Shown: one piece after another, positions 10,291-42,134 of the stretch
Layout: the number at the start of each line of letters is the position of its first letter
Numbering within the stretch: position 1 is the first letter of the stretch
Origin: Myxococcota bacterium
GTDB taxonomy: Bacteria; Myxococcota_A; UBA9160; JAFDDA01
Reading direction: 5' to 3'
NCBI GenBank assembly: GCA_965228475.1
Contig: OZ245817.1
Coordinates: 2,368,001-2,432,000 of the forward strand
DNA length: 64,000 nt
Notes under the pieces: model-generated
The model's database searches: none
Seen by the model: the letters and a program-made list of their open reading frames with translations, nothing else
Told to the model about the DNA's origin: nothing
Position numbers and translations under genes: made by a program

Positions 10291-12243
10291 ATGCGCACGG
10301 CACCGAGCTTCTCGAGACTCGTCGCGGTCCTGCTCTGCGGGATGCTCGGCGGCGCGTCCGTCGCGGAGCCCCCCGGCCAGTCCTGGGGCCACTACGGCGG
10401 CGACCCGGGCGGGCACCGCTACCTCGCCGCAGACCAGATCACGCCCCAGAACGTCGAGGATCTGGAAGTCGCCTGGCACTGGCGGAGCGGCGAGCTCGAC
10501 GGCGAGCCGCCCCACGCCGAGACGGCCTTCGAAGCGACCCCGATCCTCTTCGAGGACACGCTCTACCTCTGCACCGCGCTGAACCAGGTGGCGGCCCTCG
10601 ACCCGGACACCGGCGCGGAGCGCTGGCGGCACGACCCGCAGGTCTCGCGGAAGGGGCGCTGGTCGAACCAGCACACGTGCCGCGGCGTGGCGAGCTGGCA
10701 GGGGGAGGGCCGGGAAGGCCTCTGCCGCGCCCGCATCTTCACCAACACCGTCGACGCCCGGCTGATCGCCCTCGATGCCCCCACCGGCCGGCCGTGCCCG
10801 GGCTTCGGCGAGGACGGCACCGTCGACCTGCGCGAGGGCGTCGGCAAGATCGCCTGGCAAGGCGAGTACGGCATGACCTCGGCGCCGCTCGTCCTCGGCG
10901 ACGTCGTGGTGGTCGGCTCCGCCATCGGCGACAACCAGCGGACGGACGCTCCGAGCGGCGTCGTGCGCGGCTTCGACGCGCGCACCGGGGCGCTTCGCTG
11001 GGGCTTCGATCTCGCGCCCCCGGGCTTCGTGCGGACGCCCGAGAACACGAGCGAGGCGGGCTGGGCGCTCGGCACGCCGAACGTCTGGGCGCCCATGTCC
11101 GCGGACGTCGAGCGCGGTCTCGTCTTCCTGCCGACCGGCAACCCGGCACCCGACTACTACCACGGCGGGAAGCGCCCCGATCACTACGGGAGCTCGGTGG
11201 TGGCCGTGCGCGCCGAGACCGGCGAGGTGGTGTGGCGCTTCCAGACGGTCCACAACGACGTCTGGGACTTCGACGTCCCGGCGCAGCCGACGCTCACCGA
11301 GATCGAGCGCGACGGCGAGCGGATCCCCGTCGTCGTCCAGGCGACGAAGATGGGCCACTTCTTCATCCTCCACCGCGAGACCGGCGAGCCCGTCTTTCCC
11401 GTGGAGGAGCGGCCGGTGCCCGCGAGCGACGTGCTCGGCGAGAAGCTCTCGCCGACCCAGCCGTTCCCGCTGCTTCCGCCGCCGCTCATCCGCCACGAGC
11501 CGCTGCGCGAGAGCGACGCCTGGGGCATGGCCGTGCTCGACCGCATGGCCTGCCAGCGCAAGATCCGCGGCATGCGTTCCGACGGGATCTTCACGCCGCC
11601 GAGCCTCGAGGGCTCGATCATGCTCCCCGGCAACGGCGGGGGCTCGAACTGGGGCGGCGTCGCCGTCGATCCGGTTCGCCAGCGGCTCATCGCGAACACG
11701 ATGGATCTCGCCTGGACGATCCACCTGATCCCCCGGGATGCGTTCCCGGCGCGGCGCGAGGCCGAGAAGGGGAGGGGCATCGAGTTCGCCCCGCAGACGG
11801 GGATGCCCTTCGGGCTGCGGCGTGACACGCTGCTCTCCCCGCTCGGCATCCCGTGCAATCCGCCGCCCTTCGGCACCCTGGCCGCGATCGACCTGACCAC
11901 CGGCGCCATCGAGTGGCAGGTGCCCCTCGGCACGACGCGCGATCTCTCGCCGGTTCCGATCCATTGGCGGATCGGCGTCCCGAACATCGGCGGCCCGATG
12001 GTGACTTCGACGGGACTCGTCTTCATCGGCGCCGCGCTCGACGACTATCTGCGCGCCTTCGATCTCGCGAGTGGAGAGGAGCTCTCCCGCTGGCGGCTCC
12101 CGGCGGGCGGGCAGGCGACGCCCATGAGCTACGTCGGGCCGAGCGGGCGCCAGTACGTGGTGATCGCGGCGGGAGGTCACGGCCGGGCGGGGTCGAAGAT
12201 CGGCGATTCGGTGGTCGCCTTCGCCTTGCCGAAGGCCGACTAG
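10291..12243 (+). CDS. PQQ-dependent dehydrogenase (glucose/quinate family)
   Basis: Signal peptide; WGHYGG, FEATP, CRGV, FQTVHNDVWDFD, GGSNWGG, GQATPMSY..GRQYVVIAAGGH. Confidence 0.93.
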   Translation: MRTAPSFSRLVAVLLCGMLGGASVAEPPGQSWGHYGGDPGGHRYLAADQITPQNVEDLEVAWHWRSGELDGEPPHAETAFEATPILFEDTLYLCTALNQVAALDPDTGAERWRHDPQVSRKGRWSNQHTCRGVASWQGEGREGLCRARIFTNTVDARLIALDAPTGRPCPGFGEDGTVDLREGVGKIAWQGEYGMTSAPLVLGDVVVVGSAIGDNQRTDAPSGVVRGFDARTGALRWGFDLAPPGFVRTPENTSEAGWALGTPNVWAPMSADVERGLVFLPTGNPAPDYYHGGKRPDHYGSSVVAVRAETGEVVWRFQTVHNDVWDFDVPAQPTLTEIERDGERIPVVVQATKMGHFFILHRETGEPVFPVEERPVPASDVLGEKLSPTQPFPLLPPPLIRHEPLRESDAWGMAVLDRMACQRKIRGMRSDGIFTPPSLEGSIMLPGNGGGSNWGGVAVDPVRQRLIANTMDLAWTIHLIPRDAFPARREAEKGRGIEFAPQTGMPFGLRRDTLLSPLGIPCNPPPFGTLAAIDLTTGAIEWQVPLGTTRDLSPVPIHWRIGVPNIGGPMVTSTGLVFIGAALDDYLRAFDLASGEELSRWRLPAGGQATPMSYVGPSGRQYVVIAAGGHGRAGSKIGDSVVAFALPKAD

Positions 12244-12264
12244 CGCCGAGAGCGCAAGGCCGGC

Positions 12265-12909
12265 TCAGTCTTCGTCGGAGTCGCCGGAGTCGGCCTTCTC
12301 GAGCAGCTTCTCGTTCGTGCCGAGCTCGAGGTCGAGCTCCATGCTCTCGCTGTCGTTCGAGGAGACCTCGCGCGTCGCGTCGTCGTCGTCGAGCACGCGC
12401 AGGGCCCGCAGGCTGTCGCGCTTCGGTGCCGGCTTGTCGTCGCTCTTCGATTCCTTCGGTGCGGCGGTCTGGTCCGTGTCGCACTTCGGGCAGATCGGGT
12501 CGGGCTTGTTCAGGTCGTAGAAGACCGCGTTGCAGGACCAGCAGGTCCAGCGGATCCCGAGCTTGTTGAGGCGCTTCCCGCCGGCCACGACCAGCTTGCC
12601 CGGCTTGACGGGCTTCGCGGCAGCGCGGGCGGCCTCGCGCTCGGCCTTGGCCAGGGCCTCGGCCTGCTTCTTCGTGAGGCGCTTCTTCTTGGTCGCCTTC
12701 TTCTTCGCTGCGGCCTTCTTCGCCGGCGCCTTCTTGGCGGTCGCCTTCTTCGCAGCGGCCTTCTTGGTCGCCTTCTTGGCGGCGGGCTTCTTCGCCGCCT
12801 TCTTGGTGACCTTCTTCTTGGCCGTCTTCTTCTTGGCGGCGGTCTTCTTGCGCGCAGCGGACTTCTTGGTCGTCTTCTTCTTGGCGGCAGTCTTCTTGGC
12901 CGGACTCAT
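12265..12909 (-). CDS. histone H1-like Lys/Ala-rich domain fused to FYDLN-acid Zn-ribbon domain
   Basis: Start MSPAKK; about 80 aa of AKK/TKK repeats; then CWSC..FYDLNK...CPKC; acidic tail. Confidence 0.88.
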   Translation of the reverse strand: MSPAKKTAAKKKTTKKSAARKKTAAKKKTAKKKVTKKAAKKPAAKKATKKAAAKKATAKKAPAKKAAAKKKATKKKRLTKKQAEALAKAEREAARAAAKPVKPGKLVVAGGKRLNKLGIRWTCWSCNAVFYDLNKPDPICPKCDTDQTAAPKESKSDDKPAPKRDSLRALRVLDDDDATREVSSNDSESMELDLELGTNEKLLEKADSGDSDED

Positions 12910-14291
12910 TCGTGAGCTCCCTCGCCGAGGCGGATGCCGGGCGCTGCATCCGCGAGGTCGCGGATTCCACTCCGCTCGAGATCTGTGGGACCGTCGAACC
13001 GTGCGTGGTCCATTTCGATCCGGACTCCCTCCCTGGGGGCGCGAAGCCCCGCCTGTTCGATCCAGGCGCGGTAGCACCCCTCGAGCGCCTTCCGCGCCGC
13101 CGCCGGCGAGGCGTCCCCCTGGGCGCTCTTCACCGGCGAGTATTCGGCGCTGCGGCGCGTTTCCATTACCGCAACCCGGGTGGTTCGTGCCAGTGCATCG
13201 AAGACGAAACGCTCGGCCTTGTAGGCATTCGGGCCCGTCGGGTCCGGGTCGTCGACGTGAGGCACGCGCTTGTGCGCCAGGTGGAGGGGGAGGGGCGGGC
13301 CCTCGGCCACGCGCCGCACGAACGCCGTTTCGAAGACGTGGATCCCGATGCTCCCGGCCCAGTGCACCAGGCGCCCCGAGGCGTCGCGGGCCGCCGCCAG
13401 GGTCTCCGGCAGCTCGCTGTACTCGACGATCTCCGTGCGGCCCCGGTGCCGGCACAGGAAGCCGACGTTCTCGAGCGGGTCGCGCTTCTCGACGGCCTTG
13501 CAGGACATCTCGGCGCCGCGCTCGAGGTGGAAGCCCAGGTACTCCGGATCCGCGAGCCGGGCCAGCGGGTTGTCGACGTGGTGGTAGAAGAGGGCGCGCA
13601 GGCCCCGGGCGTCCATGGCGTCGAGGGCGCCGGAGCCGAGCAGGGCGGCGAACAGTCCGCCGTGGCCGTCCGGGGCCATGGCCAGCCGGTCGGGGGCCGC
13701 GAGCAGGATCCGGCCCTCGGCGTCGAGCGCGGGCAGCGAGCCCTGGACGACGAAGTGGACGTCCTCCCGGGCGAGCCCGAGGAAGTGCTCGGCCTCGAAG
13801 TAGGCCCGGGTCGCCGCGTCCGTTGCGGGGCTCGTCATGATCCACCACGGGATCGAGCGGCCGGTGCGCCGGGCCTGGCCGCGCAGGCGCTGGGCAAAGA
13901 TGCCGAAGAGCGTCCGGCCGCTGACCGGGCCGATCGGGTAGCGGCCCTTCGGGCCGTCGAAGCCGAGCCGCGTGCCCTGGCCGCCGGCCACGGTGACGAC
14001 GCCGACGCCGCCCTCGGCGAGGAGATCCAGGCCCAGGGCCCGGTGGCGCGGGGCCTGGCTCGGCGCCTCGTCCAGCCCCAGGACTTCGACCGGCTCGATC
14101 GAGGCCGGGCTCGGCGGCTCGGCCGAACGGGCCGCCACGAAGCCGTCCCAGAGCGAAGCCAGGTCCAGCGCCGAGAGCTCGGCCTGCAGGCGCCGTCGGC
14201 CCTCCGGATCCAGCTCGGACCAGAACCGCAGGGCGTGTGCCTGGCCGGCCGCTGCGATCGGCTCGACCCAGTCCTCGTCCGGAAGCGCCAT
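12906..14291 (-). CDS. UDPGP type-1 family nucleotidyltransferase (eukaryote-like UDP-GlcNAc pyrophosphorylase)
   Basis: AGGQGTRLGFDGPKG, IMTS, APDGHGG, VDNPL, VEYSE, KAERFVFD, EYSPVK. Confidence 0.9.
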   Translation of the reverse strand: MALPDEDWVEPIAAAGQAHALRFWSELDPEGRRRLQAELSALDLASLWDGFVAARSAEPPSPASIEPVEVLGLDEAPSQAPRHRALGLDLLAEGGVGVVTVAGGQGTRLGFDGPKGRYPIGPVSGRTLFGIFAQRLRGQARRTGRSIPWWIMTSPATDAATRAYFEAEHFLGLAREDVHFVVQGSLPALDAEGRILLAAPDRLAMAPDGHGGLFAALLGSGALDAMDARGLRALFYHHVDNPLARLADPEYLGFHLERGAEMSCKAVEKRDPLENVGFLCRHRGRTEIVEYSELPETLAAARDASGRLVHWAGSIGIHVFETAFVRRVAEGPPLPLHLAHKRVPHVDDPDPTGPNAYKAERFVFDALARTTRVAVMETRRSAEYSPVKSAQGDASPAAARKALEGCYRAWIEQAGLRAPREGVRIEMDHARFDGPTDLERSGIRDLADAAPGIRLGEGAHE

Positions 14292-14368
14292 GGGCGGGGC
14301 GGTAGCACACGTCCGTGGGGGAGCGGGGAGGCGAAGGAGTCGCGGCCCGGCGAATCGACGGATTCACT

Positions 14369-14396
14369 ACTTTACATAATCTATCTTATCGGACGT
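14369..14396 (-). other. dif site (XerC/XerD chromosome dimer resolution site)
   Basis: Reverse complement ACGTCCGATAA-GATAGA-TTATGTAAAGT has the 11-6-11 architecture of E. coli dif (GGTGCGCATAA-TGTATA-TTATGTTAAAT); an isolated AT-rich intergenic patch. Confidence 0.9.
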
Positions 14397-14489
14397 TAGC
14401 GAGAAGAGGGCGAGGGAGCGAAAGCGGGCCAGGGCCCAAGGGTCGCGGGCCGGACGGCCTGCTGGGGGCTTCGGAGCGGCCGAGGCCGC

Positions 14490-15254
14490 CTAGCTGGCGG
14501 AGGCGCTGCGGAGCGACTGAGCCGCGCGGAGCTCGCGCAGCCGCGCCACCGTGTGGGCCGGGACTTCGTCGAGCACGGCGGCTTCTTCGAGCTCGGCGAA
14601 CAGTGCGAGCGCGGCCTCCGGCTCGCCGGCTTCGATGCGCGAGCGCGCGGCCGCGGCCAGCGATTCCCAGCGGCCCGGGAAGTCCGCGATCCGGCCCGCG
14701 CGTTCGTGGGCTTCGGCGGCAGCGGTCCATTCGCCGGCGTCCTCGTGGGCCCGGGCCGTTCGCCCGAGCAGCAAGGCCGCCAAGGCGGAATCCGGATCGA
14801 CGGAGTCGAGGCCGGCCTGCCAGGCGTCCTGGGCCAGATGCGGTGCTCCGAGGGCTTCGTGGAGGTTCCCGGCCTCGAGCATGGCGAGCGCTCCGGCGGC
14901 GGTTCCGGCGTGCTCGGCGCCCACGGCTTCGAACCGGCCGACGTAGGTCTCGCGGGTGGTCCGCGCGACCTCCGGGTTGGCGGGCTCGAGGATCTCGATG
15001 TCGTCGGGCTGCGCGCCCATCGCCGTCAGGTACTCGGTCCGGACGTCGGCCAGCGCGGAGGCGCCCTCCTGCTCGCTGCGGTCCGCGTAGCCCGAATACA
15101 GGTCCGTCCCCAGCGCGATCGCGAGGATCGCCACCGCCGCCACGCCGAGCAGAATGCGGTTCTCGGAGACCCAGCCGGCCATGCGATCGAAGCTCTCCTC
15201 GATCTCGTGCAGGGTCTCTTCGGCCTGATTCGGTTCGTCTCGACGGCGCGCCAC
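14490..15254 (-). CDS. membrane-anchored TPR protein (YfgM-like)
   Basis: GTG start; W..EN followed by a single TM helix, then TPR-like helices; adjacent to der. Confidence 0.8.
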   Translation of the reverse strand: MARRRDEPNQAEETLHEIEESFDRMAGWVSENRILLGVAAVAILAIALGTDLYSGYADRSEQEGASALADVRTEYLTAMGAQPDDIEILEPANPEVARTTRETYVGRFEAVGAEHAGTAAGALAMLEAGNLHEALGAPHLAQDAWQAGLDSVDPDSALAALLLGRTARAHEDAGEWTAAAEAHERAGRIADFPGRWESLAAAARSRIEAGEPEAALALFAELEEAAVLDEVPAHTVARLRELRAAQSLRSASAS

Positions 15255-15335
15255 GGCAGGTTCTCCCGGAGTCTCGGTTCGGCCAGGCTCGCCTGGCGGG
15301 GTCTCGGTCTCGGTTCGATCTCGAAGCGGCGGAGT

Positions 15336-16688
15336 CTAGCGCCGTCCCTCTCCGCGGCGATGGCGAAGCAGCAGCCGCACCGGGGTCCCCTGGAGCCCGA
15401 AACGCTCCCGGAGCTGGTTCTCGAGGAAGCGCACGTAGCTCTTCTGGATCGACTCCGGCGCGCTGCAGAACAGGACGAAGGTCGGCGGCGCCTCGGCGGT
15501 CTGGGTGGCGTAGAGGAACTTCACGGGCCGCCGGCGCGAGCCACGCTGGGCCATGGCCGGTTCATGCTTGTTCGTTGCGTCCTTCAGCCACTCGTTGAGC
15601 GCCGAGGTCTCGATCCGCGTGTGCGCCGCCGCGGCGAGCTGGCGCACGAGCGGCAGGATCTTCCCGCAGCGCGCCCCGGTCTTGGCGGAGACCTGGAGGA
15701 CCGGCGTATCGGACATGAAGCGCAGGCGGCGCTGGATCTCCTCGACCGTCCGGCGGCGCTGGGGCGCGTCCTCCTTGGCGGCGAGGTCCCACTTGTTCGC
15801 GAGCAGCGCCGCGGCCCGGCCGCGCTCCCGGGCCATGCCGGCCACGCGGACGTCCTGGTCCGTGACGCCCTCGTTCGCGTCGATCACGACCAGCGCCACG
15901 TCCGCACGCTCGAGGGCGCGCAGCGCCATGTAGGCCGAAGCGCGCTCGGTGCCCTTCTCCCGGCGCCCGGGCCGCCGGAGGCCCGCCGTGTCGATCAGCA
16001 CGAAGTCGCCGTCCTCGGTCCGCAGCAGGCTGTCGACGGCGTCGCGCGTGGTTCCCGGCACGTCCGAGACCACGACGCGCTCGTCCCCGAGCAGCCGGTT
16101 CGTGAGCGAGCTCTTGCCGACGTTCGGGCGCCCGACCAGGGCGATGCGAATCACCCCTTCGAGTGTTTCCTCAGGGGCTCCGGACTCCGGCACCTCGGCG
16201 ACGAGCGCCTCGAGGGCGTCGAAGGCGCCCGTGCCGTGCTCGGCCGAGACCGTGCGCAGGGGCAGCCCGAGGCGGTGGAACTCGGCGGCGCGCGCTTCGT
16301 GCTTCGGCTGGTCGATCTTGTTCACGACGAGCAGCAGCGGCCGCGAGCCCTTGCGCAGGGTCCGCGCGATCTCCTCGTCCTCAGGCAGGAGCCCGCCCTT
16401 CCCGTCCACGACGAACATCACCGCGTCGGCCCCCTCGACGGCCTCGCGGGCCTGGGCCTGCACCGCCGCCTCGAGCCCGGCTTCGGCCTCCGGGTCGAGC
16501 CCCGCGGTATCGACGAGCAGGATCTTCCGGTGGCCGAGATCGACGGTCTCGGTGATGCGGTCGCGCGTGACGCCCGGCGTGTTCTCCACGAGCGCCCGCC
16601 GCGATCCGGCGAAGCGGTTGAACAGCGTGCTCTTCCCGACGTTCGGGCGGCCCACGATGGCGATGATGGGGAGAGAGCGGTCGGCCAT
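15336..16688 (-). CDS. der: ribosome biogenesis GTPase Der (EngA)
   Basis: Two GRPNVGKS G-domains, DTAG, NKID/NKWD, C-terminal KH-like PPTFVLF...FGLQGTP. Confidence 0.97.
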   Translation of the reverse strand: MADRSLPIIAIVGRPNVGKSTLFNRFAGSRRALVENTPGVTRDRITETVDLGHRKILLVDTAGLDPEAEAGLEAAVQAQAREAVEGADAVMFVVDGKGGLLPEDEEIARTLRKGSRPLLLVVNKIDQPKHEARAAEFHRLGLPLRTVSAEHGTGAFDALEALVAEVPESGAPEETLEGVIRIALVGRPNVGKSSLTNRLLGDERVVVSDVPGTTRDAVDSLLRTEDGDFVLIDTAGLRRPGRREKGTERASAYMALRALERADVALVVIDANEGVTDQDVRVAGMARERGRAAALLANKWDLAAKEDAPQRRRTVEEIQRRLRFMSDTPVLQVSAKTGARCGKILPLVRQLAAAAHTRIETSALNEWLKDATNKHEPAMAQRGSRRRPVKFLYATQTAEAPPTFVLFCSAPESIQKSYVRFLENQLRERFGLQGTPVRLLLRHRRGEGRR

Positions 16689-24044: not shown

Positions 24045-24662
24045 ATGGCACCTCTCCGGTCGGCGTGTTGGGGATTCCTCGCGCTCGCCCTCGCCTTTCC
24101 GGCGACGGCGCAGGGGCCGGACCTCAACTACCTGGCCCTCGACTGGGTGCGCGGCCGCTTCGCCTCCCCGGTCGTCTGCGAAGGCGGCGGCGAGGCCGCT
24201 CGGGTCCAGCGGCGTCTGACGGTGGCGCCCGGCCCGAAGCGCGCCCGGCCCATCACGAACCGGATCACCTTCCACGGCATCGACGTCAAGAAGGCCGAGC
24301 GCTGCATGGACGTTCTCGGCAAGGACCAGCCGGAGGTACGCGGGGGGATCCAGATCACCCTCCCCGGCCACTCGCGCCCGGACCTCGCCCCCTCCGAGTT
24401 CCGCCGGGTCCTGCGCAACGAGGGAGGCTTCGACTTCGACATCACCGAGGGCCGCCTCCAGCTCACGGACTGGAGCGTGCCTCGCGAGCGTCGGGTCATC
24501 GACCTCCGGGGCGGGAAGGCGCGGTTCCGGGCCGTGCGCCGCGGGAGCGACGCCGCGCGGATCCTCTCGGGCTACGAGAGCCCACAGAAGCTGACGCTGG
24601 AGCTCGAGGCGCCCGAGGGTGAGACGCTGCAGTTCCAGCTCGCGCTCTACGACTTCCGGTGA
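24045..24662 (+). CDS. exported hypothetical protein
   Basis: Signal peptide (AFPATA); good codon bias; stop overlaps the next start. Confidence 0.75.
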   Translation: MAPLRSACWGFLALALAFPATAQGPDLNYLALDWVRGRFASPVVCEGGGEAARVQRRLTVAPGPKRARPITNRITFHGIDVKKAERCMDVLGKDQPEVRGGIQITLPGHSRPDLAPSEFRRVLRNEGGFDFDITEGRLQLTDWSVPRERRVIDLRGGKARFRAVRRGSDAARILSGYESPQKLTLELEAPEGETLQFQLALYDFR

Positions 24663-25906
24663 ACGGCCCCTTCGAACGGGACGGGCTCCGCTGGTGGCTG
24701 GCCGACGGTGTCGAGCCCGAAGGCTTCTTCGCGCTCGCCGCCTCCGCCGCGAAGGCCCTCGAAGCCGGTGCCGAGCCGTTCAAGGCCGGGCGGCGCAAGC
24801 ACGCCTGGCGCCTGGCGCTGCGTGGGCCGGCCGAGGACCACCTCTGGAAGGTGAATCACTACCCCGCCGGGAAGCGCGCGCCCCGGGTCTCGAAGGCGCG
24901 GCGAGAGCTCGCCCGCGCCGAGGCCGTGGCGGCCCGCGGCGTCGCCACGCCGGTCCCGCTCGCGGCCGGCGAGGAGATCCGCGACGGGAAGCTCGTCTCC
25001 TGCCGCCTGGCCGTCGCGCTGCTGCCGGGCGTGCAAGACCTGCGCGCCCGTCTCGATGCGGCACCCGAAGCGCCCGCAACGCGGCGGGAGATGGCGACCG
25101 CCTTCGGCGCTTTCGCTTGCGCACTCCACGAGGCGGGCATCCACCAGGACGACTTCCAGCCGAACAACTTCCTGGTGCGGCACGGAGCGGGTGGGACGCC
25201 CGAGTTCCTCGCCATCGACTTCGAGCGAACGCGCATCGTCCGGTTCCGGCGAAGCGTTCCGAGGCGGCTGCGGCTGCGCGCCCTCGCGAAGCTCGACCGC
25301 GAGACCCACGCGCTGCCGGCCTCCCTGCGTCACCGCTTTCTCCTCGGCTACGCGGGGGGCGATGTCGGCGAAGCCCGCCAGCTCGCAAGCGAGATCGCCG
25401 AGGCTGCGGCCGTCCTCGCCCGGCGCGACCGGGCCCGTCTCGAGCGCATCGCCGTCCCGGGCCGCCGCTACATCGCCTGGGGCAAGGGGCTGGCGCGGAA
25501 AGGCCAGGAGACCGCGCTCGAGCCCGGTGGCGCCGCGGAAGAGGTGTTCCTCGCGGGTACCGAAGAGGCTTCCGCCCTCGCGACCTTTGCTTCCGCCCTC
25601 ACCCTCGCCGCGCGCGGCCTGGCCCCGCGGCCCGTCGGCGTCTCGTGGGAAGGGCCCCGCGCGCGCCTCTACTTCGCGCCCGCTCCGGGGGGCGCCGCGC
25701 CCCCGGACGATGCCGCGCTCCGCGTCCTCGAGCACAAGCTCGCGCGCTACGGGCGTCTCGCGCACCCGCCTTCGGCGGACGACGTTTCCTTCGAGCAGAG
25801 TTCGGGCCGGACCGTCGCGCGGCTGCGCAACGTCGAACGCTGGGAGGTCAGGCCGCGCTTCGGTGGCCGAGGCGGATCCGCTGGACGACCTCGATCAGGT
25901 CGCTGA
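24659..25906 (+). CDS. lipopolysaccharide kinase (Kdo/WaaP/InaA family)
   Basis: ARRE, TPVPLA, LHEAGIHQDDFQPNNFL catalytic loop, IDFE. Confidence 0.8.
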   Translation: MNGPFERDGLRWWLADGVEPEGFFALAASAAKALEAGAEPFKAGRRKHAWRLALRGPAEDHLWKVNHYPAGKRAPRVSKARRELARAEAVAARGVATPVPLAAGEEIRDGKLVSCRLAVALLPGVQDLRARLDAAPEAPATRREMATAFGAFACALHEAGIHQDDFQPNNFLVRHGAGGTPEFLAIDFERTRIVRFRRSVPRRLRLRALAKLDRETHALPASLRHRFLLGYAGGDVGEARQLASEIAEAAAVLARRDRARLERIAVPGRRYIAWGKGLARKGQETALEPGGAAEEVFLAGTEEASALATFASALTLAARGLAPRPVGVSWEGPRARLYFAPAPGGAAPPDDAALRVLEHKLARYGRLAHPPSADDVSFEQSSGRTVARLRNVERWEVRPRFGGRGGSAGRPRSGR

Positions 25907-26212: not shown

Positions 26213-30423
<4,211 letters not shown>

Positions 30424-30502
30424 GGGCCGCGCAGCGTACCCCAAGTTCGCAGCGCTGGGTCGCCTCCCGCCGCCTCCCGAGCCGTCCGTGTACACTGCCG
30501 TG

Positions 30503-31510
30503 ATGCCGAAGAACACCCAGATCGTTCTCGTCGAACGCCCGAGCGGCGCTCTCGAAGAGTCCCACTTCTCCGTCCGCGAGGCGGAGGTGCCCCAGGCGGC
30601 CGATGGGCAGGTCGTCGTCCGCAACGTCCTGCTCTCCCAGGACGCGGCCAACCGCGCCTGGATGCAGGGCGCGACCTACCGCGAGGCCGTGAACGAGGGC
30701 GACGTCATGCACGGCTATGCCATCGGCCAGGTCGTCGAGTCGAAGGCCGCCGGCTGGGCCGAAGGCGACCTCGTCATGGGCGAGATCGGCTGGCAGGAGT
30801 ACGCCGCCCTCGACGGCCGCGCCGTCACCGCGTGTACGGACCACCGGCCGCTCTCCCAACAGATCTCCGTGCTCGGCATCGCCGGGCTCACCGCCTACCA
30901 CGGGCTCCTCAACGTCCCGGGCATCGCCGAAGGCGAGACCCTGCTCGTGTCCGCCGCAGCGGGGTCGGTCGGCTCGCTCGTCGGGCAGATCGGACGTTTG
31001 AAGGGCGCCCGGGTGGTCGGTATCGCCGGCGGCCCGGAGAAGTGCGGCTGGGTCGTCGACGAGCTCGGCTTCGACGCCTGCATCGACTACAAGGGCGAGG
31101 ACGTCTCCGCGGGCATCGCGAAGCACGCCCCGGACGGCATCGACGTCTACTTCGACAACGTGGGCGGGCCGATTCTCCAGGCGGCGCTGTTCGCCATGAA
31201 GGATCACGGCCGCATCTCCTGCTGCGGCGCCGTCTCGATGTACGACGGCGGTCCGCTCACCGGCCCCGTCGGCGTCCCGGGCCTGCTGGTGGTGAAGCGC
31301 ATCCGGATGGAGGGCTTCATCGTGATGGACTTCATGGACCGGAACGCCGAGGCGCTCCACGCGCTCTCGGGCTGGGCCGCGAGCGGGGATCTCGTGGTCG
31401 CCGAGGACATCATCGAAGGCCTCGAGAATGCGCCGCGCGGGCTGATCGGGCTCCTGGCGGGGGAGAACCGCGGGAAGCGCATGATCCGGGTCTCGCCGGA
31501 CCCGAGCTGA
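30503..31510 (+). CDS. NADP-dependent oxidoreductase (prostaglandin reductase/CurA-like)
   Basis: GLTAYHGL, VSAAAGSVG, GIAGGPEK, YFDNVGG, GENRGK. Confidence 0.92.
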   Translation: MPKNTQIVLVERPSGALEESHFSVREAEVPQAADGQVVVRNVLLSQDAANRAWMQGATYREAVNEGDVMHGYAIGQVVESKAAGWAEGDLVMGEIGWQEYAALDGRAVTACTDHRPLSQQISVLGIAGLTAYHGLLNVPGIAEGETLLVSAAAGSVGSLVGQIGRLKGARVVGIAGGPEKCGWVVDELGFDACIDYKGEDVSAGIAKHAPDGIDVYFDNVGGPILQAALFAMKDHGRISCCGAVSMYDGGPLTGPVGVPGLLVVKRIRMEGFIVMDFMDRNAEALHALSGWAASGDLVVAEDIIEGLENAPRGLIGLLAGENRGKRMIRVSPDPS

Positions 31511-31521
31511 GCCGCCCCGAG

Positions 31522-32199
31522 CTAGAACCCGAAGCTCTCGAGCCCCCGGCAGTACTTCGAGATCTTGTTCACGAAGAACGGGAAGACGCCCGTGATGCGG
31601 TCGGCTTTGTCGTCCGCGTCGGGGTCGTACTTCAGCTCGACGACGACGCTCTCGCGGTCGATCGCGCGGGCCAGCAGCCGGTTGCGGAAGCGGCGCAGGC
31701 GATGGAACTCGAGGTCGCGGTCGAGGGTCAGGCGGAAGCGCCCGCAGCGGGAGGCCCAGTACTCGCGGCGGTAGCGGTTGAGCAGGGTCGGCTGGAGGCT
31801 CGTGAGCTCCGCCCGGCGCGCGGGCGGGAGATCGCAGGCGAGCAGCACGTCGGTCAGGCGCTCGGCGTCGAAGGGGCGATCGAGCCGGAACGCGGGCGCG
31901 CCGAAAGCCTCCTTGCGACCAAGCAGGTTGCGCTTGATCTTGAACTCGAGCCGCCCGCCCTCGATCTCGCCCTCCGGCTCGCCGTACCAGCGCAGCCGGA
32001 CCTTCTCGCGGTCCTCGAGGCCTTCGACGTTGGCGTGGTAGTGCGAGAGCAGCGGTGTGTCGAAGTAGACGTTGTTCACGAAGCGCGGCGGGTGGAGCGT
32101 CCGGAAGCCCGCGGGATGCTGGGCCACCATGCGCCGGACCTGACCGAAGGAGAGATCCTGGACGTGGGCCTTGCGCTCGAAGCGCAGGTCGTCGCTCAC
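31522..32199 (-). CDS. VTC-domain (polyphosphate polymerase, TTM fold) protein
   Basis: RFERK, VYFDT, REKVRLRWY, EFKIK, YRREY, RLTLD, ELKY, ISKY; GTG start overlaps the upstream stop. Confidence 0.88.
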   Translation of the reverse strand: MSDDLRFERKAHVQDLSFGQVRRMVAQHPAGFRTLHPPRFVNNVYFDTPLLSHYHANVEGLEDREKVRLRWYGEPEGEIEGGRLEFKIKRNLLGRKEAFGAPAFRLDRPFDAERLTDVLLACDLPPARRAELTSLQPTLLNRYRREYWASRCGRFRLTLDRDLEFHRLRRFRNRLLARAIDRESVVVELKYDPDADDKADRITGVFPFFVNKISKYCRGLESFGF

Positions 32200-34808
32200 G
32201 GCGCGGCCGCCGCGGGGGGCGCCGGGTCGGCGTAGATCTCGTCGGCGACGTCCCGGGCCTTGCCGTCCAGCACGCGGCCATCGAGCTCGACGCGTGAGCC
32301 GGTCTCGATGCGATGGGCCTCGGCCACGTTCACGCTGCGCAGCCCCGCGATCCGCAGCAGCGCCGGTCCGAACTCGGGTTTCTTCTGGAAGACGGCGAGG
32401 CCGACCCGGCTCTCTTCGATCGCGAGGCGTTCGAGCGCGGCGAAGGAGTTGTCCTTCACGGCCACGCCGAACGCCGCGCCCCGCACCGAGAGCTCCCGGC
32501 CCCGGACCTGGCTCGCCTCGCCGAAGGAGAAGGCCTTGTCGCCGGCGCCGTCGACGCGGACGTTGCGCAACTCGACGTGGCTCCCGGAGAGGTCGACGCC
32601 ATCGTTCCCCGCGGCGACGAAGAGCGTGTCCACGAGGGAGCCCTCGGCGAAGTCGGCATCGAGGGCGTCGAAGAGGCTGCCCTGGAGGCGGGACCGCTCG
32701 AGGGAGAACTTCGAACGCACGACGTTCAGCAGGTCGTCGCCGCTGTGGTTCGCGGCGAAGAGGCAATCGCTGAAGGCCACGTCGGACTCGTAGAAGGTGA
32801 CGGCGCCCGTGAGCGACCAGCCCCGCTGGTCCGGGGCCCCGAGCCCGCGAAAGACGACGAAGGCGAGCCGGGACGCTTCCCCTGCCTCGAGCACGGCGAC
32901 GCCCTGCCCCGTCCCGTCGCTCGAGGTGATGACGATTGGCTCCGCCTCGGTCCCGACCCAGTCGAGGGGCGAGCGTGAGAGCAGCATCGCCCCCTGCTGC
33001 AGATCGAGCGTGAAGCCCGGCGGCGCGTGGACGCGGTAGCCCGCGGGCAGGATCACGTTGCGCTCCGCGACCCACCGGCCGGGGAGCAGGTCGATCTCGC
33101 GGGCCTTCTCGCGCACCCGGACGAAGGGGATCGAAGCGAGATCGGCGCGGGCCCGCGGCGGGTCGCGCTGAAGGATCTCCGCCTGGAGATGGTTCCAGGG
33201 CGACACCGCGGCGGTCTCGATCTCGGGGAGCCCGGCGATCCGGTAGCGGATGCGCCAGCCCGGCGCCGCGGCGGAGGCATCGTCTGCGTTCTCGGAGTCG
33301 TCCGGGACCAGGACGACGCGGCCGTAGCGGGCGGGTGCCTCGGCGCGCTTGCCCGGGACGAAACCGCCTTCGGTCACGCGCCAGACCGTTCCGTCCGGCC
33401 CGCGCGCCCCGAGCAGCCGAAGCGGCCAGTGCTGGAGGCTCGCGACCTCGAGCACGGCACGGTCGCCCCCAGCCTCGGCCACGTAGGCCCGGACGGGGTG
33501 CAGCGGATCGAGCACCGTCCGGATCTGTTTCTGGAGCCCGACCAGCGCCCCCGGCCCGAAGCCGTAGTCCGGGAACTCGCGCCGGAGCGTCGCGAGCGCG
33601 CTCGCGAGATCCTCCTCGTGGCGTTCGAAGAAATCCGCGAGCCAGTCCGGGTCCGAGAGCCGCGCGAGCTCGGCCACGTAGTGCTCCATGAAGGCCGGAT
33701 CCGCGAAGAAGCGACGGGTGAAGGCTTCCATGTACGGACGCGGGCCGTCCCCCATCCACCAGCCCGGAACGGTGAGGGTCGGGCGGTGATGGATCTCGGC
33801 GACGATCGGCTGGAGCCGCCCGGCCACCGGGTCGTAGTAGAACTTGGTGTCCTTCCAGTCGAACTCGTAGGCCCCGAACACGGCCTTCAGCGCCATGGCG
33901 CGGGCCATCTTCTCGAGGTCGAACGCGTCGGCCGGCGCGGCGTCGCCGTTGCGAAAGGCCTCGAGCAGGCCCGCGGCCTTGCGATAGCGCTCCGCCTCGG
34001 GCGTGCCCGGGGTGAGTGCGCTCGCCTGGATGCCGTCCACCGGCGCCGCGTGGAAGGCGCCGTCGACGTTGTAGGGCACGACCTGCTCGCGGTTGCGCCG
34101 CCGGTACTCCGCCAGGAGGAGGTCCTTGTCGAAGCCGACGATCGGGCCTTCGCGGAAGCGGTTCGATTCGATCAAGCGCTTGCCGAAGTGTTCGGCCAGC
34201 GCGTAGATCCCGAGCTCTTCGCCGTTCACCACGACCTCGACGAAGCGGAAGCGCAGCGCCACGAGGCCCTCGTCGGCGACGGCGCGCAGGAAGAGCCACT
34301 CGTAGATGAAGTCGCGATTCATCGGGTGCTGGATCGAGAAGCGCTTCATCCCGAGCAGCGCGTGGTCGCCCTTCAGCTTCACCTGGAAGGACCACTTGCG
34401 GTCGTCGCGCCAGTGGCCCGAGTAGACGCCCTTCAAGCGCATGCGCACGGGGACGTTCTCTCCCCGCCAGCGGATGCTCGCCGGGACGTAGCTCTCGCCA
34501 TCGGGCAGGTGGATCCCGTCTCGGAGGGCCGTCTCGCGCTGATAGCGGATGCGCTGCCAGTCCATGTGGGCGACGTCGAAGACGAGCCGCTCGGGCGCCG
34601 TGGTCGCGCGCGCCCGCTGCTGCTCGACGAAGTTCGCCACCCGCGCCGGCGCTTCCTTCGCGGCGACCATCACGCGGTTCGCGCCGAGGAGCATCAGCAC
34701 CGCCAGGGCGAACCCCGCGGCCAGGAGCGCCAGCGCGCTCCCCAGGGTCAGCTCGAGCTGGCGGCCGCCCCGCGCGAGGCTGCGCCGTGACGGGCCCTTG
34801 ATCTGCAT
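32196..34808 (-). CDS. membrane-anchored CotH-family kinase with C-terminal parallel beta-helix
   Basis: N-terminal TM; RLKG..HW..KWSFQVK, GMKRFS, VNGEELGIY..EH, FYYDP..LQPI; C-terminal DALDADF/GNDGVDLSGS/GDKAFSFGE repeats. Confidence 0.85.
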   Translation of the reverse strand: MQIKGPSRRSLARGGRQLELTLGSALALLAAGFALAVLMLLGANRVMVAAKEAPARVANFVEQQRARATTAPERLVFDVAHMDWQRIRYQRETALRDGIHLPDGESYVPASIRWRGENVPVRMRLKGVYSGHWRDDRKWSFQVKLKGDHALLGMKRFSIQHPMNRDFIYEWLFLRAVADEGLVALRFRFVEVVVNGEELGIYALAEHFGKRLIESNRFREGPIVGFDKDLLLAEYRRRNREQVVPYNVDGAFHAAPVDGIQASALTPGTPEAERYRKAAGLLEAFRNGDAAPADAFDLEKMARAMALKAVFGAYEFDWKDTKFYYDPVAGRLQPIVAEIHHRPTLTVPGWWMGDGPRPYMEAFTRRFFADPAFMEHYVAELARLSDPDWLADFFERHEEDLASALATLRREFPDYGFGPGALVGLQKQIRTVLDPLHPVRAYVAEAGGDRAVLEVASLQHWPLRLLGARGPDGTVWRVTEGGFVPGKRAEAPARYGRVVLVPDDSENADDASAAAPGWRIRYRIAGLPEIETAAVSPWNHLQAEILQRDPPRARADLASIPFVRVREKAREIDLLPGRWVAERNVILPAGYRVHAPPGFTLDLQQGAMLLSRSPLDWVGTEAEPIVITSSDGTGQGVAVLEAGEASRLAFVVFRGLGAPDQRGWSLTGAVTFYESDVAFSDCLFAANHSGDDLLNVVRSKFSLERSRLQGSLFDALDADFAEGSLVDTLFVAAGNDGVDLSGSHVELRNVRVDGAGDKAFSFGEASQVRGRELSVRGAAFGVAVKDNSFAALERLAIEESRVGLAVFQKKPEFGPALLRIAGLRSVNVAEAHRIETGSRVELDGRVLDGKARDVADEIYADPAPPAAAAP

Positions 34809-34837
34809 CGGCTAGCGGATCCCCGGGAGCGGCACGG

Positions 34838-35518
34838 TCAGACGATCGCGCCGTCGAGGAGGCTCAGGCGGAGCGATCCGTGGCTCTCGGCCAGGCTTCG
34901 CCGCGCGGCTTCGAGGGCCTCGAAGTTCGAGAACTCGACCTGGAAGGTCGCCTCGAGGGCGCCGTCCCCTTCGTCGAGCCGCTTCAGGTCGAGCGTCTGG
35001 CAGTGGCGCCCGAGGATCTCCGAGAGTTCCGAGAGCGAGATCCCGGCGTCGCGGTCTCCCGAGACCGTGAGCAGCGTGCAGGCCTGCCCTTCGCGCGCGC
35101 GGGTCATGCCGCGGAAGACGACCGCCGCCGAGAGGATGGTGAAACCGACGAGGGTCACCTCGCGCTGCCCCGCGCCGAAGCCGAGGCCGACGGCGATGCA
35201 GATGAAGAGGAAGGCGAGCTCTTCGGGATCCTTGATCGCCGTGCGGAAGCGCACGATCGAGAGCGCGCCGACGAGCCCGAGCGAGAGCGCGAGCGAAGAC
35301 TTCACGACCGTGATGATCACCATGGTCGTGAGCGCCAGGAGCGGGAAGTTCCCCGCGAAGCGCTGGCGGTTCGAGTGAGCCTGGGCGAAGCGGCAGTAGA
35401 GCTGCTTCAGGATGAGGGCGAGCACGAACGTCAGGCCCAGGTTGACGACGAAGTCCACGAGCGGCACGCGGGCGGCCTCCGTGGCCAGGAATTCTTCGAA
35501 GCTCGGTTGCGAGTCCAT
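34838..35518 (-). CDS. DUF4956 family membrane protein
   Basis: VKSSLALSLGLVGALSIVRFRTAIKDPEE signature; about 4 TM helices plus an ACT-like tail. Confidence 0.9.
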   Translation of the reverse strand: MDSQPSFEEFLATEAARVPLVDFVVNLGLTFVLALILKQLYCRFAQAHSNRQRFAGNFPLLALTTMVIITVVKSSLALSLGLVGALSIVRFRTAIKDPEELAFLFICIAVGLGFGAGQREVTLVGFTILSAAVVFRGMTRAREGQACTLLTVSGDRDAGISLSELSEILGRHCQTLDLKRLDEGDGALEATFQVEFSNFEALEAARRSLAESHGSLRLSLLDGAIV

Positions 35519-35637
35519 CGCCGAAGGCGTCCTTTCGGCCGGGCGCAGCGGGGGCCCGACTGGGGGAATTCCCCTGGAGAATCGGCCGGGAAGCGCGCGC
35601 GCTTGAGCGATCGGCACCTTCGTCCGACACACCGGTC

Positions 35638-36570
35638 ATGGACCGCGTCCGAATCCGATCGCGAACCAGAGCCACCGTGCGAGCGCTCCTCCTCCTCGCC
35701 TCGCTGCAGCTCACCGGGGGCTGTGGGGGAGAAGACCCTCTCCCGCCGGTCGTTCGCGAGACCGTCTTCGTCGGCGAGGCCGGCTCGGCGCGGGGCACGC
35801 GCTTCGCGCTGATGGGCCACCTCTACCCGATCGCGAAGGATCCCGGCCGCCTGCGCGAGTTCCTCGGCGCCGTGAACGCGACGCGCCCGGACCTGATCTT
35901 CGTGCTCGGCGATTCGCTGCTGCACGATCCGGCCATCGTGGCGGTGTTCGAGGAGGTCCTCGAGGCGCCCTGGCACGTCACGCCGGGGAACCACGAACTC
36001 AAGCCCGAGCGGCGCGAGGCCTACCTCGCGCGCTTCCCGGATCTCGCCACGCGCGTCTTGGCGCCCGACTGCAACTTCCTGCTCGTGGCCTCGTCGATGT
36101 CCCTCGACCAGTTCCGCGGGAGCCTCGCAGGCGTGCTCGAAGGCCTCGAGACCGACCGCCCGACCGTGCTCCTGACCCACCACCGGATCTGGGACGACAC
36201 GCTGCTCAGCGCCGGCCCCTACCAGCACGACAAGTCCTACTGGTTCGACGAGATCCATCCGGTGCTCGCGGGACGGGTCCAGGCGATCTTCGCGGGGAAC
36301 TCGAAGCGCCAGTACTTCCGCGACCTCTCGACCAGCCCGAACTACGGGCCCCAGAACGTGAACAACGTCTTCTGGGCCGACCGGGTCGGCGGGCTCGACG
36401 CCTACAGCATCGGCATGGGCGACGGAGTGCCGAAGGCGACCTTCGCCGTGGCCGAGGTGGTCGGCGGCCGGCTCCTCGTCGAGCCCCACGCCCACGTCTG
36501 GGGCGGCCGGGACCCCGTCGACCGCAAGCTCCTGCAGCCCATCCGCCGCAGCCGGGCACCGCGGCGCTAG
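35638..36570 (+). CDS. calcineurin-like metallophosphoesterase, putative lipoprotein
   Basis: LTGGC lipobox; GHLY, LGD, PGNHE, LTHH, FAG motifs. Confidence 0.8.
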   Translation: MDRVRIRSRTRATVRALLLLASLQLTGGCGGEDPLPPVVRETVFVGEAGSARGTRFALMGHLYPIAKDPGRLREFLGAVNATRPDLIFVLGDSLLHDPAIVAVFEEVLEAPWHVTPGNHELKPERREAYLARFPDLATRVLAPDCNFLLVASSMSLDQFRGSLAGVLEGLETDRPTVLLTHHRIWDDTLLSAGPYQHDKSYWFDEIHPVLAGRVQAIFAGNSKRQYFRDLSTSPNYGPQNVNNVFWADRVGGLDAYSIGMGDGVPKATFAVAEVVGGRLLVEPHAHVWGGRDPVDRKLLQPIRRSRAPRR

Positions 36571-40603: not shown

Positions 40604-41323
40604 TCAGGGCAGGAAGAGCAGCGGGTCCTGGGGCGTCCGGCCGCGTCGGACTTCGAAGTGTAGGTGCGGCCCCGTGGATCGGCCCGTCGAGCCGACCTCG
40701 GCGATCTTGTCCCCGCGCCGCACCCAATCGTTGCGCTTCACGTGGAGCTTGCGGGCGTGGGCATACACCGTGGTGTACTGCTTCGAGTGCCGGATCACGA
40801 CGACCTTGCCGTAGGCCCCGAGCGGCCCGCTGTGGATCACCCGGCCGGATTCGGCGGCTCGGATGGGGGTGCCGGGCCGGGCGGCGAGGTCGATGCCCTG
40901 GTGCTTCCGCCCCCAGCGCCGCCCGAACTTCGAGGTGAGGCGCCCTTCGCTCGGCCAGCGGAAGGAGAGATCCTCGCGGCGTGCATCGCGGCGGGCGGCT
41001 TCGCGCGAGGGCGCTTCCTTCCGTTCGATGCCGCGGATCACGCCGGGCGTCCCGGAACCGGTGCCCTCGGGCGGCTTCCCGCCCGGAACCCAGATGCGCC
41101 GCCCGGCGGCGACCTCGCGCACGTCGCGGATGCGGTTCGCGCGCACGATGCGCTTCACGCTCGTCCCGTAGTTCTGGGCGACGCTCCAGACGGTCTCGCC
41201 GGGCCGCAGGACGTGCCAGGCGCCCACGGGCTTCGGGTTGCTGAAGCAACCGCCGAGCAGCGGCAGCACGAAGCACCCGGACAGTGCGGCGAGACGAAGC
41301 TCGCGCCGGGCTAGGCGGCCCAC
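40604..41323 (-). CDS. LysM + M23 peptidase lipoprotein (NlpD-like)
   Basis: LGGC lipobox; LysM (HVLRPGET); HQGID, YAH, TGPHLHFE. Confidence 0.9.
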   Translation of the reverse strand: MGRLARRELRLAALSGCFVLPLLGGCFSNPKPVGAWHVLRPGETVWSVAQNYGTSVKRIVRANRIRDVREVAAGRRIWVPGGKPPEGTGSGTPGVIRGIERKEAPSREAARRDARREDLSFRWPSEGRLTSKFGRRWGRKHQGIDLAARPGTPIRAAESGRVIHSGPLGAYGKVVVIRHSKQYTTVYAHARKLHVKRNDWVRRGDKIAEVGSTGRSTGPHLHFEVRRGRTPQDPLLFLP

Positions 41324-42015
41324 CCGTCGGCCCCGACGAGATCCACGAACCGCGCGGGCCCGAGGATCTCGCGTTCGAAGAGTCCCTCGGCGGTGCGCCG
41401 GATGCGCACCAGACGCTGCTCGCCGCGCTCGCCGAAGGGGCCGACGAGCCGACCTCCCGGTGCGAGCTGTTCGAGCAGTGCCACGGGGACGCGCGGGCCC
41501 CCGGCCGTGACGACGATGGCGTCGAAGGGGGCATCGGCCGGGCGTCCGTGGGTGCCGTCGCCTTCGTGGACGACGACGTTCTCGATGGCGAGGGTCTCGA
41601 GCGCCGCTCGGGCTCGCTCGGCCAGCGCCGCGAAGCGTTCGATGGAGATGACCCGGCCGCACAGGTTCGCGAGCACCGCGGCCTGGTAGGCCGAGCCCGT
41701 TCCGACCTCGAGCACGGTCTCGCCGCCGCGCAGGCGCAGGGCCGCGGTCATGGCCGCCACGGTCCGGGGTGCCGAGATGGTCTGGCCTTCGCCGATCGGG
41801 AGCGCCTCGTCCTCGCGGTAGGCGCGGCCGCGCAGGGCCTCGGGGATGAGCAGATCGCGCGGGACGCGGGCCAGGGCGCGCAGGACCCGCCGGTCGCGCA
41901 GCCCATCGCTCGCCAGGCGCGCGACCATGCGGCGCCGCGCCAGGGCATAGCGCGCAAAACGCCGTTCGCGCCGCGCAGCGCCCTCGTTCCTCTCCACTTC
42001 CCAGTCCATGGACAT
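41311..42015 (-). CDS. pcm: protein-L-isoaspartate O-methyltransferase
   Basis: PIGEGQTISAP, VLEVGTGSAYQAA, APFDAIVVTAG, QLAPGGRLV. Confidence 0.94.
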   Translation of the reverse strand: MSMDWEVERNEGAARRERRFARYALARRRMVARLASDGLRDRRVLRALARVPRDLLIPEALRGRAYREDEALPIGEGQTISAPRTVAAMTAALRLRGGETVLEVGTGSAYQAAVLANLCGRVISIERFAALAERARAALETLAIENVVVHEGDGTHGRPADAPFDAIVVTAGGPRVPVALLEQLAPGGRLVGPFGERGEQRLVRIRRTAEGLFEREILGPARFVDLVGADGWAA

Positions 42016-42134
42016 GGGACGTCGTTCCCCCCGCGAGATTCGCAGCTTAGAGGGGAAGTCCGCGAAACGCCACGGGTTTTCGGCGTGAATCCGGGGCTCT
42101 TCGGCCCCAACCCGCGTTTTCCTGCAGCCGGGGT

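Follow-up and report, generated by a model that had tools for sequence, protein, structure and literature searches.

A conserved VTC, DUF4956 and CotH gene module from a Myxococcota bacterium as a candidate polyphosphate-handling envelope system

The subject of this analysis is a four-gene locus (positions 31522–36570) in a 64,000-nt stretch of the genome of a Myxococcota bacterium (GCA_965228475.1, contig OZ245817.1, positions 2,368,001–2,432,000; hereafter the window). The genes encode a triphosphate-tunnel protein of the VTC family, a DUF4956 membrane protein, a membrane-anchored CotH-like protein with a C-terminal beta-helix, and a lipoprotein metallophosphoesterase. We propose that the four genes constitute one envelope module, in which polyphosphate would be made inside the cell, passed through DUF4956, and used or processed in the periplasm; we assign this reading a probability of about 0.45. 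It is an open problem how phosphoryl donors reach enzymes beyond the cytoplasmic membrane, and to our knowledge there is no known polyphosphate export machinery in prokaryotes. The VTC, DUF4956 and CotH trio is already in print; on the side of function, it is a real, conserved, compact and uncharacterised module.

Conservation of the gene set

To survey the neighbourhoods of the CotH-like gene, one genome per species was scanned by pattern, giving 422 stretches with long CotH/beta-helix relatives. The best 80 of these yielded 76 loci, whose six-frame open reading frames were searched with profiles grown from the window proteins. Many bacterial phyla are represented among the loci, as are archaea, for example Methanosarcina and Methanogenium. 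In 52 loci the CotH gene is flanked by 1.5 kb or more on each side; of these, 42 contain both DUF4956 and VTC within 3 kb, 3 contain DUF4956 only, 2 VTC only, and 5 neither. With few exceptions the genes follow the window order, DUF4956-CotH-VTC, and because this order recurs across many phyla, the linkage is beyond chance.

The neighbourhoods were also examined from the side of the VTC gene, which was found in 98 of 201 genomes sampled from the phylum. Flanks of 9 kb were retrieved for 40 of the 98, with one hit per genome taken in score order where the contig allowed and with the neighbours unseen. DUF4956 is present in 36 of these 40 loci and a CotH-like gene in 12, while the phosphoesterase subfamily is present in none of the 40. 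A Pfam scan of 34 adjacent frames from 26 VTC-DUF4956 loci detected HlyD-type adaptors in 15 loci and TolC-like OEP genes in 11; together they account for 20 of the 26 loci, the other 6 having neither. From the VTC- and CotH-centred counts, the invariant core consists of VTC and DUF4956, which diderms usually combine with export parts. No HlyD adaptor or outer-membrane duct gene was found beside the window module, which is an alternative wiring of the core, to periplasmic enzymes.

In one of the 26 loci, a phosphate-selective porin O/P gene (E 4.9e-50; L111:5941–7329, minus strand) lies two genes from the VTC-DUF4956 pair. In L103, L109 and L116, a phytase-like beta-propeller (PF13449, E 8e-6 to 2e-9) is present at the C-terminus of the HlyD-type adaptor beside VTC-DUF4956; for an export adaptor, a domain related to phosphate esters is an uncommon feature.

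The phosphoesterase subfamily (E ≤1e-30) occurs within 6 kb in 19 of the 76 CotH loci, on the CotH strand in 17 of the 19 and often between cassette genes. Searching the 201 phylum genomes for the phosphoesterase itself gave three full-length strong matches (G000, G086 and G131), each within 6 kb of the VTC gene of that genome; G086 and G131 have the genes arranged as VTC-DUF4956-CotH-phosphoesterase, all co-directional. In a Planctomycetota metagenome-assembled genome (L067:2923–5262, plus strand), a single frame contains both CotH (Pfam, 130–338) and Metallophos (551–667) and is followed by a beta-helix frame, a natural fusion of two cassette parts. The phosphoesterase is a real but optional fourth member of the module. 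A first-pass annotation of this DNA had suggested that the trio recurs in other bacteria, had placed the phosphoesterase in the same system, and had named neighbourhood co-occurrence as a check; these views are borne out by the trio counts (42/52) and, for the phosphoesterase, by its presence in 19/76 loci, the fusion, and the proximity of all three strong matches to VTC.

The VTC protein

The VTC protein scores 79.9 bits against PF09359 (cut-off 23), and hydropathy analysis finds no hydrophobic segment in it. A profile built from 44 cassette VTC homologues matches the solved catalytic domains of Vtc2 and Vtc4 (E 2.3e-8 and 1.5e-7, respectively). Using the residue numbering of the native chain 8i6v_E and of the available part of a cryo-EM preprint (10.1101/2023.01.27.525886), Vtc4 residues K200, R264, R266, K281, Y359, R361, S457 and K458 align to window residues K10, R68, R70, K87, Y143, R145, S214 and K215, all of which are invariant among the 44 homologues. 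The Vtc4 metal ligand E426 probably corresponds to window E188, which lies in an ELK strand outside the tool alignment. The part of the preprint available to us describes these eight residues and E426 as essential, and K458 as the sole residue that differs in the inactive Vtc2 and Vtc3, where it is I or L (10.1101/2023.01.27.525886). Since the catalytic set, including the K458 equivalent, is conserved, the window protein looks like a competent Vtc4-type enzyme.

The DUF4956 membrane protein

The DUF4956 protein scores 60.4 bits against PF16316 (cut-off 30.6), and its profile retrieves 4227 cluster representatives at E ≤1e-10. Hydropathy analysis gives five hydrophobic segments, two of them overlapping, and the structural model (predicted local distance difference test, pLDDT, 85) contains five helices and a C-terminal beta-alpha-beta-beta-alpha-beta domain, in agreement with the multi-transmembrane protein described in the first-pass annotation. 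In Foldseek searches the C-terminal domain resembles PII-like SbtB/ACT domains (TMt 0.5–0.7, with a weak E of ~1e-2), and no convincing match was obtained for the membrane part of the model.

The most conserved region is the block K73–L101 (KSSLALSLGLVGALSIVRFRxAIKxPEEL), in which, among 39 sequences, 20 of the 29 positions never vary and a further 7 hardly do. Charge counts suggest an N-out, C-in orientation, which would place R90, R92 and K96 of this block on the cytoplasmic face. Among the best 150 profile hits, 13 DUF4956 proteins of 444–502 aa (P0041–P0137) carry an N-terminal extension, and in 9 of the 13 the extension matches the ConA-like family PF06439 (3-keto-disaccharide-hydrolase-type). 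This ConA-like domain is usually exported, so the extensions fit an N-out DUF4956, whose lectin-like domain would then lie on the outside.

A distant relationship of DUF4956 to MgtC is only a lead. An Atlas comparison gives 0.78, while hhalign of DUF4956 against MgtC gives a probability of 1%, and the window protein has no Pfam hit to MgtC (PF02308) even at E 10. The DUF4956 gene of G086 (G086:C25:59475–59810, L094) reaches 28.6 bits with the Pfam MgtC model, below the cut-off of 31.4 (E 6.5e-6), over positions 2–118 of 121.

The CotH-like beta-helix protein

The match of the CotH-like protein to PF08757 (27.7 bits, cut-off 23.8, E 2.5e-6) covers the N-lobe only. Single-sequence searches of the PDB returned nothing useful, and profiles were required. 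The AlphaFold model (pLDDT 86.6) has a long helix at residues 22–69, and structure comparison through Foldseek and VIA matches revealed a full CotH kinase fold (323 of 358 residues of 5jd9 aligned, rmsd 3.4) and a right-handed parallel beta-helix similar to AlgG (276 residues aligned), separated by a beta-sandwich that was missing from the first-pass annotation. The sole hydrophobic segment follows five K/R residues, and by the positive-inside rule the protein is predicted to be N-in with the remainder outside. The 870-aa anchored fusion of CotH and beta-helix described at first pass agrees with the model and with the hydropathy, which gives a single N-terminal anchor.

The active site was mapped from sequence alignment. 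Profile comparisons of the CotH-like protein with the PDB and with L079, a canonical CotH of another genome, aligned only the N-lobe, and a 72-sequence profile reached the catalytic loop; the mapping was bridged through L079, which aligns with 5jd9 across the NFD...N...PWDYD region. In the available part of a study of Bacillus subtilis CotH, mutation of D228 or D251 inactivates the enzyme (PMC7821199). Judging from their spacing, these are probably the two Asp residues 23 residues apart in the L079/5jd9 region. HMMER and hhalign agree in pairing the catalytic Asp with window D317 and the Asn of the loop with D320. The counterpart of E338 is an Asp of the PWDxD motif, with the aligners two residues apart as to which WDxD Asp it is. 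Among 72 full-length homologues, position 315 is His in 61 and Glu in 8, position 317 is Asp in 10, position 320 is Asn in 59 and Asp in 9, position 322 is Arg in 58 and Lys in 11, and position 338 is Asp in 47 and Glu in 22. The window clade thus appears to retain a near-canonical acidic triad, while most relatives appear to have moved a His into the site.

Conservation among the same 72 homologues is stricter in the beta-helix than in the kinase loop: 71 or more of them retain each of D692, D714, D717, D719, D736, D739 and D757, as well as K758, E764, K785, D786, K809, K810 and E812. For this reason the beta-helix is probably a working site and not a passive stalk. In a Saprospiraceae chromosome (L073, 6258–16533), the cassette is followed by three tandem CotH-like genes (10414–12999, 13075–14730 and 14914–16533), a local expansion of the outward-facing component.

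The phosphoesterase

The phosphoesterase scores 26.6 bits against PF00149 (cut-off 21.5). It has an N-terminus that is basic, a hydrophobic run and a lipobox, as expected for the divergent lipoprotein metallophosphoesterase named in the first-pass annotation. The nearest solved relatives of its profile are Rv0805 (E 6e-12), GpdQ and purple acid phosphatases. Canonical Metallophos proteins carry the motifs DxH, GD, GNH[DE], H and GHxH. The alignment of the subfamily, which comprises 19 sequences, has a signature of its own, in which motifs II–IV are present with invariant D92 (GD), N118 (GN) and H181 (the motif-IV His). All 18 aligned relatives begin with a hydrophobic leader, and by eye 13 of the 19 proteins also end in a hydrophobic tail, instead of which the window protein has a lipobox.

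Locus layout and host genome

The coordinates of the locus are collected in Table 1. All four proteins exceed the Pfam curated cut-offs, including those of the three families (VTC, PF09359; CotH, PF08757; DUF4956, PF16316) for which profile searches had been suggested, and an NCBIfam scan returned no family for any of the four. The VTC start codon GTG (32199–32197) shares four nucleotides with the CotH stop codon TGA (32198–32196) as GTGA, and reading by hand found no ATG, GTG or TTG among the 13 in-frame codons upstream of it. The DUF4956 stop and the CotH ATG are separated by 29 nt. The likely start of DUF4956 is the ATG at 35518, which has an AAGGA-like site ahead of it; a GTG at 35632 was rejected, as the longer frame would nearly touch the divergent phosphoesterase gene (ATG at 35638). 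The arrangement described at first pass, with three packed co-directional genes head-to-head with the phosphoesterase and a soluble VTC protein whose start overlaps the CotH stop, is what the sequence contains.

Table 1. Coordinates of the four genes and their parts within the window
Feature	Position	Strand	Basis
VTC-domain (triphosphate-tunnel) protein, 225 aa	31522..32199	-	PF09359, E 2.7e-22
CotH-like protein, 870 aa: anchor, kinase fold, beta-sandwich and beta-helix	32196..34808	-	PF08757, model
Right-handed parallel beta-helix, aa 546-853	32250..33173	-	AlgG 4nk8, Z 27.5
CotH-like beta-sandwich linker, aa 463-545	33174..33422	-	seven strands in model, residues 439-537
CotH kinase-fold domain, aa 71-462	33423..34598	-	5jd9, Z 27.0
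CotH-like hydrophobic anchor, aa 18-51	34656..34757	-	hydropathy, charge count
DUF4956 membrane protein, 226 aa	34838..35518	-	PF16316, E 2.3e-16
Divergent spacer, 119 nt, between the DUF4956 and phosphoesterase starts	35519..35637	.	sequence
Lipoprotein metallophosphoesterase, 310 aa	35638..36570	+	PF00149, E 9.5e-6
Phosphoesterase signal and lipobox, aa 1-29	35638..35724	+	LTGGC, Cys29

The divergent spacer is presumed to be a shared regulatory region. A simple scan found no sigma-70-like promoter sites, the spacer included, and a terminator scan gave only two terminator-like sites, both within genes and at chance level. The G+C content of the window is 70%, which gives rise to many long spurious open frames, and real genes were told from these by third-position G+C. 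Two long minus-strand frames, 27920–32281 (1453 aa) and 31522–34395 (957 aa), cross several real genes and were discarded as artefacts of the high G+C.

The host genome is a single 5.0-Mb contig with one VTC gene and one CotH match. The presence of LpxC indicates a diderm. The genome also has a separate PPK1, so the single VTC gene is an extra, dedicated enzyme. The flanks in the window are ordinary metabolic genes. A Kdo/WaaP-family lipopolysaccharide-kinase-like gene (24623–25903, plus strand), another envelope phosphotransferase, lies 6 kb from the module. A LysM-M23 peptidase gene (40607–42046, minus strand) has a low third-position G+C bias (0.72) and therefore escaped the G+C filter, but it is clear in Pfam.

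Proposed mechanism and alternatives

We hypothesize that the VTC protein, as a Vtc4-type tunnel enzyme, would polymerise phosphate from ATP in the cytoplasm, and that DUF4956, probably as an oligomer, would accept the growing chain at a patch of conserved basic residues predicted to face the cytoplasm and pass it across the inner membrane. The driving force would come from polymerisation, as it does in yeast VTC, where the available part of the cryo-EM preprint reports that synthesis is coupled to translocation (10.1101/2023.01.27.525886). On the periplasmic side, the chain would meet the anchored CotH-fold phosphotransferase with its beta-helix and the lipoprotein phosphoesterase, and this pair would use or trim it, the likeliest use being phosphate transfer to an envelope polymer bound at the beta-helix. 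The periplasm is a compartment without ATP. The action of the CotH/beta-helix protein on the chain may take any of three forms: use as a phosphoryl donor, ligation or anchoring, or binding. The combination of a cytoplasmic enzyme, a constant membrane partner, and either a duct or outward-facing enzymes finds its simplest explanation in passage of the VTC product across the membrane through DUF4956. The inside, membrane and outside layout proposed at first pass agrees with sequence rules, namely the lack of a hydrophobic segment in the VTC protein, the CotH anchor, and the phosphoesterase lipobox. Its proposal that VTC and DUF4956 form a synthase and translocase is upheld indirectly, by the Vtc4 residues, the 36/40 adjacency and the HlyD/TolC partners in 20/26 loci.

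A number of observations weigh against this proposal. Among bacterial tunnel-fold (CYTH) enzymes, many act as triphosphatases or cyclases, and sequence alone is no proof that the VTC protein is a polymerase. DUF4956 does not detectably resemble the channel subunits of Vtc1 type with their three helices, and neither the best 150 DUF4956 hits nor one VTC search for longer proteins contained a VTC-DUF4956 fusion. No glycan-synthesis family was found by Pfam among 19 flanking frames (21.5–44.8 kb of the window). In the CotH-like family, the catalytic Asp position is not Asp in 62 of the 72 long-form homologues, and the family may therefore not act as an ordinary kinase. In 19 of 19 phosphoesterase sequences, motif I is reduced to GH, lacking the Asp, and AG[DN] stands in place of GHxH as motif V; the protein is a divergent family member, which may still be active. 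On a single 3.9-kb metagenome contig, a protein of 1110 aa (P0015) joins CotH/beta-helix and VTC through a 45-residue linker with no hydrophobic segment. If real, it would put CotH and VTC on one side of the membrane, contradicting the two-sided topology; the join is probably a frameshift, which is the likelier explanation because the genes overlap and the protein comes from that one short contig. Finally, the mechanism draws on gene content, folds, conserved residues and synteny, from which the topology, the synthesis and translocation of polyphosphate and all periplasmic steps are deduced.

What the periplasmic pair would do with the chain can be read in two ways, each of which we consider unlikely as a full account. 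The exported polyphosphate may be the phosphoryl donor of the CotH-like enzyme, the beta-helix holding a glycan or protein target from which the phosphoesterase would remove the phosphate again. This is favoured by the complete CotH fold, by the apparent retention of an acidic residue at each of the three canonical sites (D317, D320 and E338, through the L079 bridge), by K/R at position 322 in 69 of 72 homologues, where ordinary CotH has no basic residue and where a polyanion could be bound, by the resemblance of the beta-helix to polysaccharide-active enzymes, and by the phosphodiesterases and acid phosphatases that are nearest to the phosphoesterase profile among solved structures. However, we know of no CotH-fold kinase that uses polyphosphate, in most of the family H315 is present and D317 absent, the window copy has no glycan genes in its vicinity, and on present data an eraser cannot be told from an enzyme that trims polyphosphate. 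Use of polyphosphate as a donor by CotH is conjecture, as is the eraser, the role of which fits no better and no worse than that of a Ppn2-like polyphosphatase. In the other case, the polyphosphate itself would be the product, destined for the periplasm or surface in a cation, phosphate or matrix role, with a Ppn2-like phosphoesterase to size or recycle it and a CotH-like protein that is no kinase but binds, anchors or ligates the chain. The lumen fed by yeast VTC contains Ppn2, a metallophosphatase-type endopolyphosphatase, according to the available part of PMC7381174. Most VTC-DUF4956 pairs of the phylum have no CotH-like gene nearby (present in 12/40) and are joined to HlyD/TolC instead, and the beta-helix groove, with its seven near-invariant Asp and its Lys pairs, would suit metal-bridged binding of a polyanion. 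Against this, the CotH fold speaks for catalysis, as does the conservation of its active-site region, and the phosphoesterase is missing from 57 of the 76 loci.

Rather less probable is that no polyphosphate is moved at all and that the VTC protein is a triphosphatase or other small-molecule tunnel enzyme, perhaps signalling through the PII/ACT-like domain of DUF4956. The tunnel fold does host triphosphatases and cyclases, the C-terminal domain of DUF4956 resembles nucleotide-binding PII-like/ACT domains, and weak MgtC leads exist (Atlas 0.78; the sub-threshold G086 match, E 6.5e-6). Yet K215, the equivalent of the Vtc4-specific Lys that parts the polymerase from its inactive paralogues, is invariant, the recurrent partnership with HlyD/TolC points to an exported substrate, and the hhalign probability for DUF4956 and MgtC is 1%. 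The ordinary metabolic flanks and the divergent transcription of the phosphoesterase would also fit genes of unrelated functions that are neighbours by chance or share only their regulation. We regard this as highly improbable: it is contradicted by the synteny counts, with the same order found across many bacterial phyla and some archaea, by the 4-nt overlap of start and stop, and by the natural CotH-phosphoesterase fusion. A polyphosphate-handling envelope module remains our preferred reading.

In its most far-reaching form, bacteria and archaea would send chemical energy out of the cytoplasm in the form of polyphosphate: a Vtc4-like polymerase docked on an unrelated DUF4956 channel would drive the chain outwards, the CotH enzyme outside would spend it instead of ATP on phosphorylating envelope polymers, and the dedicated, divergent phosphoesterase would reverse or meter the reaction. 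We think this doubtful; if true, the module would rank as the first extracytoplasmic kinase system to work independently of ATP and as a second polyphosphate synthase-translocase, evolved independently. A module of the kind proposed would link polyphosphate biology, envelope modification and atypical kinases, and should VTC turn out to be no more than a triphosphatase, the module remains a conserved system of the envelope. As it is compact, with four genes and no other genes of the system around them, it is a clean candidate for reconstitution.

Comparison with known systems

The trio has been seen before in other contexts. In the available part of Whitfield et al. (bioRxiv 10.1101/768473), cotH, 'polyphosphate polymerase' and DUF4956 genes (with DUF4832) appear as unexplained accessory genes of Gram-positive pel loci, and the available part of PMC2879425 shows a VTC-'tubulin'-CotH run beside a chitin-synthase-like gene in NELoc-2 of Clostridium perfringens. 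In both sets the same three families are adjacent and, in those parts of the two sources, have no function assigned. In contrast to the pel sets, the host of the window module is a diderm, no pel or other glycan genes are adjacent, the CotH domain is fused to a beta-helix, and the fourth gene is a phosphoesterase instead of DUF4832. Literature searches on DUF4956, CotH, the VTC domain and polyphosphate polymerase found no functional study of the trio, in agreement with the statement in the first-pass annotation that no characterised function was known. Nor did they find a publication on the VTC-DUF4956-HlyD-TolC cassettes of diderms, which have the same VTC-DUF4956 core; the window has the CotH/beta-helix protein and the phosphoesterase in place of their adaptor and duct.

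The whole-domain fold of the CotH-like protein matches that of the Bacillus CotH spore-coat kinase (5jd9/5jda), and the window protein appears to be acidic at the positions of B. subtilis CotH D228 and D251. The sequence likeness is limited to the N-lobe, and the window protein appears to have Asp for the canonical Asn and Glu for the Mg-binding Asp, while most of its relatives have a His two residues ahead of the Asp position and no Asp there. Whereas Bacillus CotH is a spore-coat protein, the window protein is membrane-anchored and predicted to be extracytoplasmic. The right-handed parallel beta-helix is shared with AlgG, AlgE4, tailspike depolymerases and NosD (Z 23–27.5), but the identity is only 8–15%, and the conserved charged residues are family-specific.

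A close parallel for the proposed module is the eukaryotic VTC complex (yeast Vtc4 with Vtc3 or Vtc2, and Vtc1; PDB 3g3q, 8i6v), which has the same tunnel-fold domain with the same triphosphate-binding residues. In both systems the catalytic domain is tied genetically to a membrane protein, and a metallophosphatase, Ppn2 in yeast, is found or predicted across the membrane. The yeast complex contains SPX domains and three-helix Vtc1-type subunits, whereas the window VTC protein is a free 225-aa domain without either. Its membrane partner is instead DUF4956, with five helices and a PII/ACT-like domain, and a kinase-fold enzyme is also predicted on the far side of the membrane.

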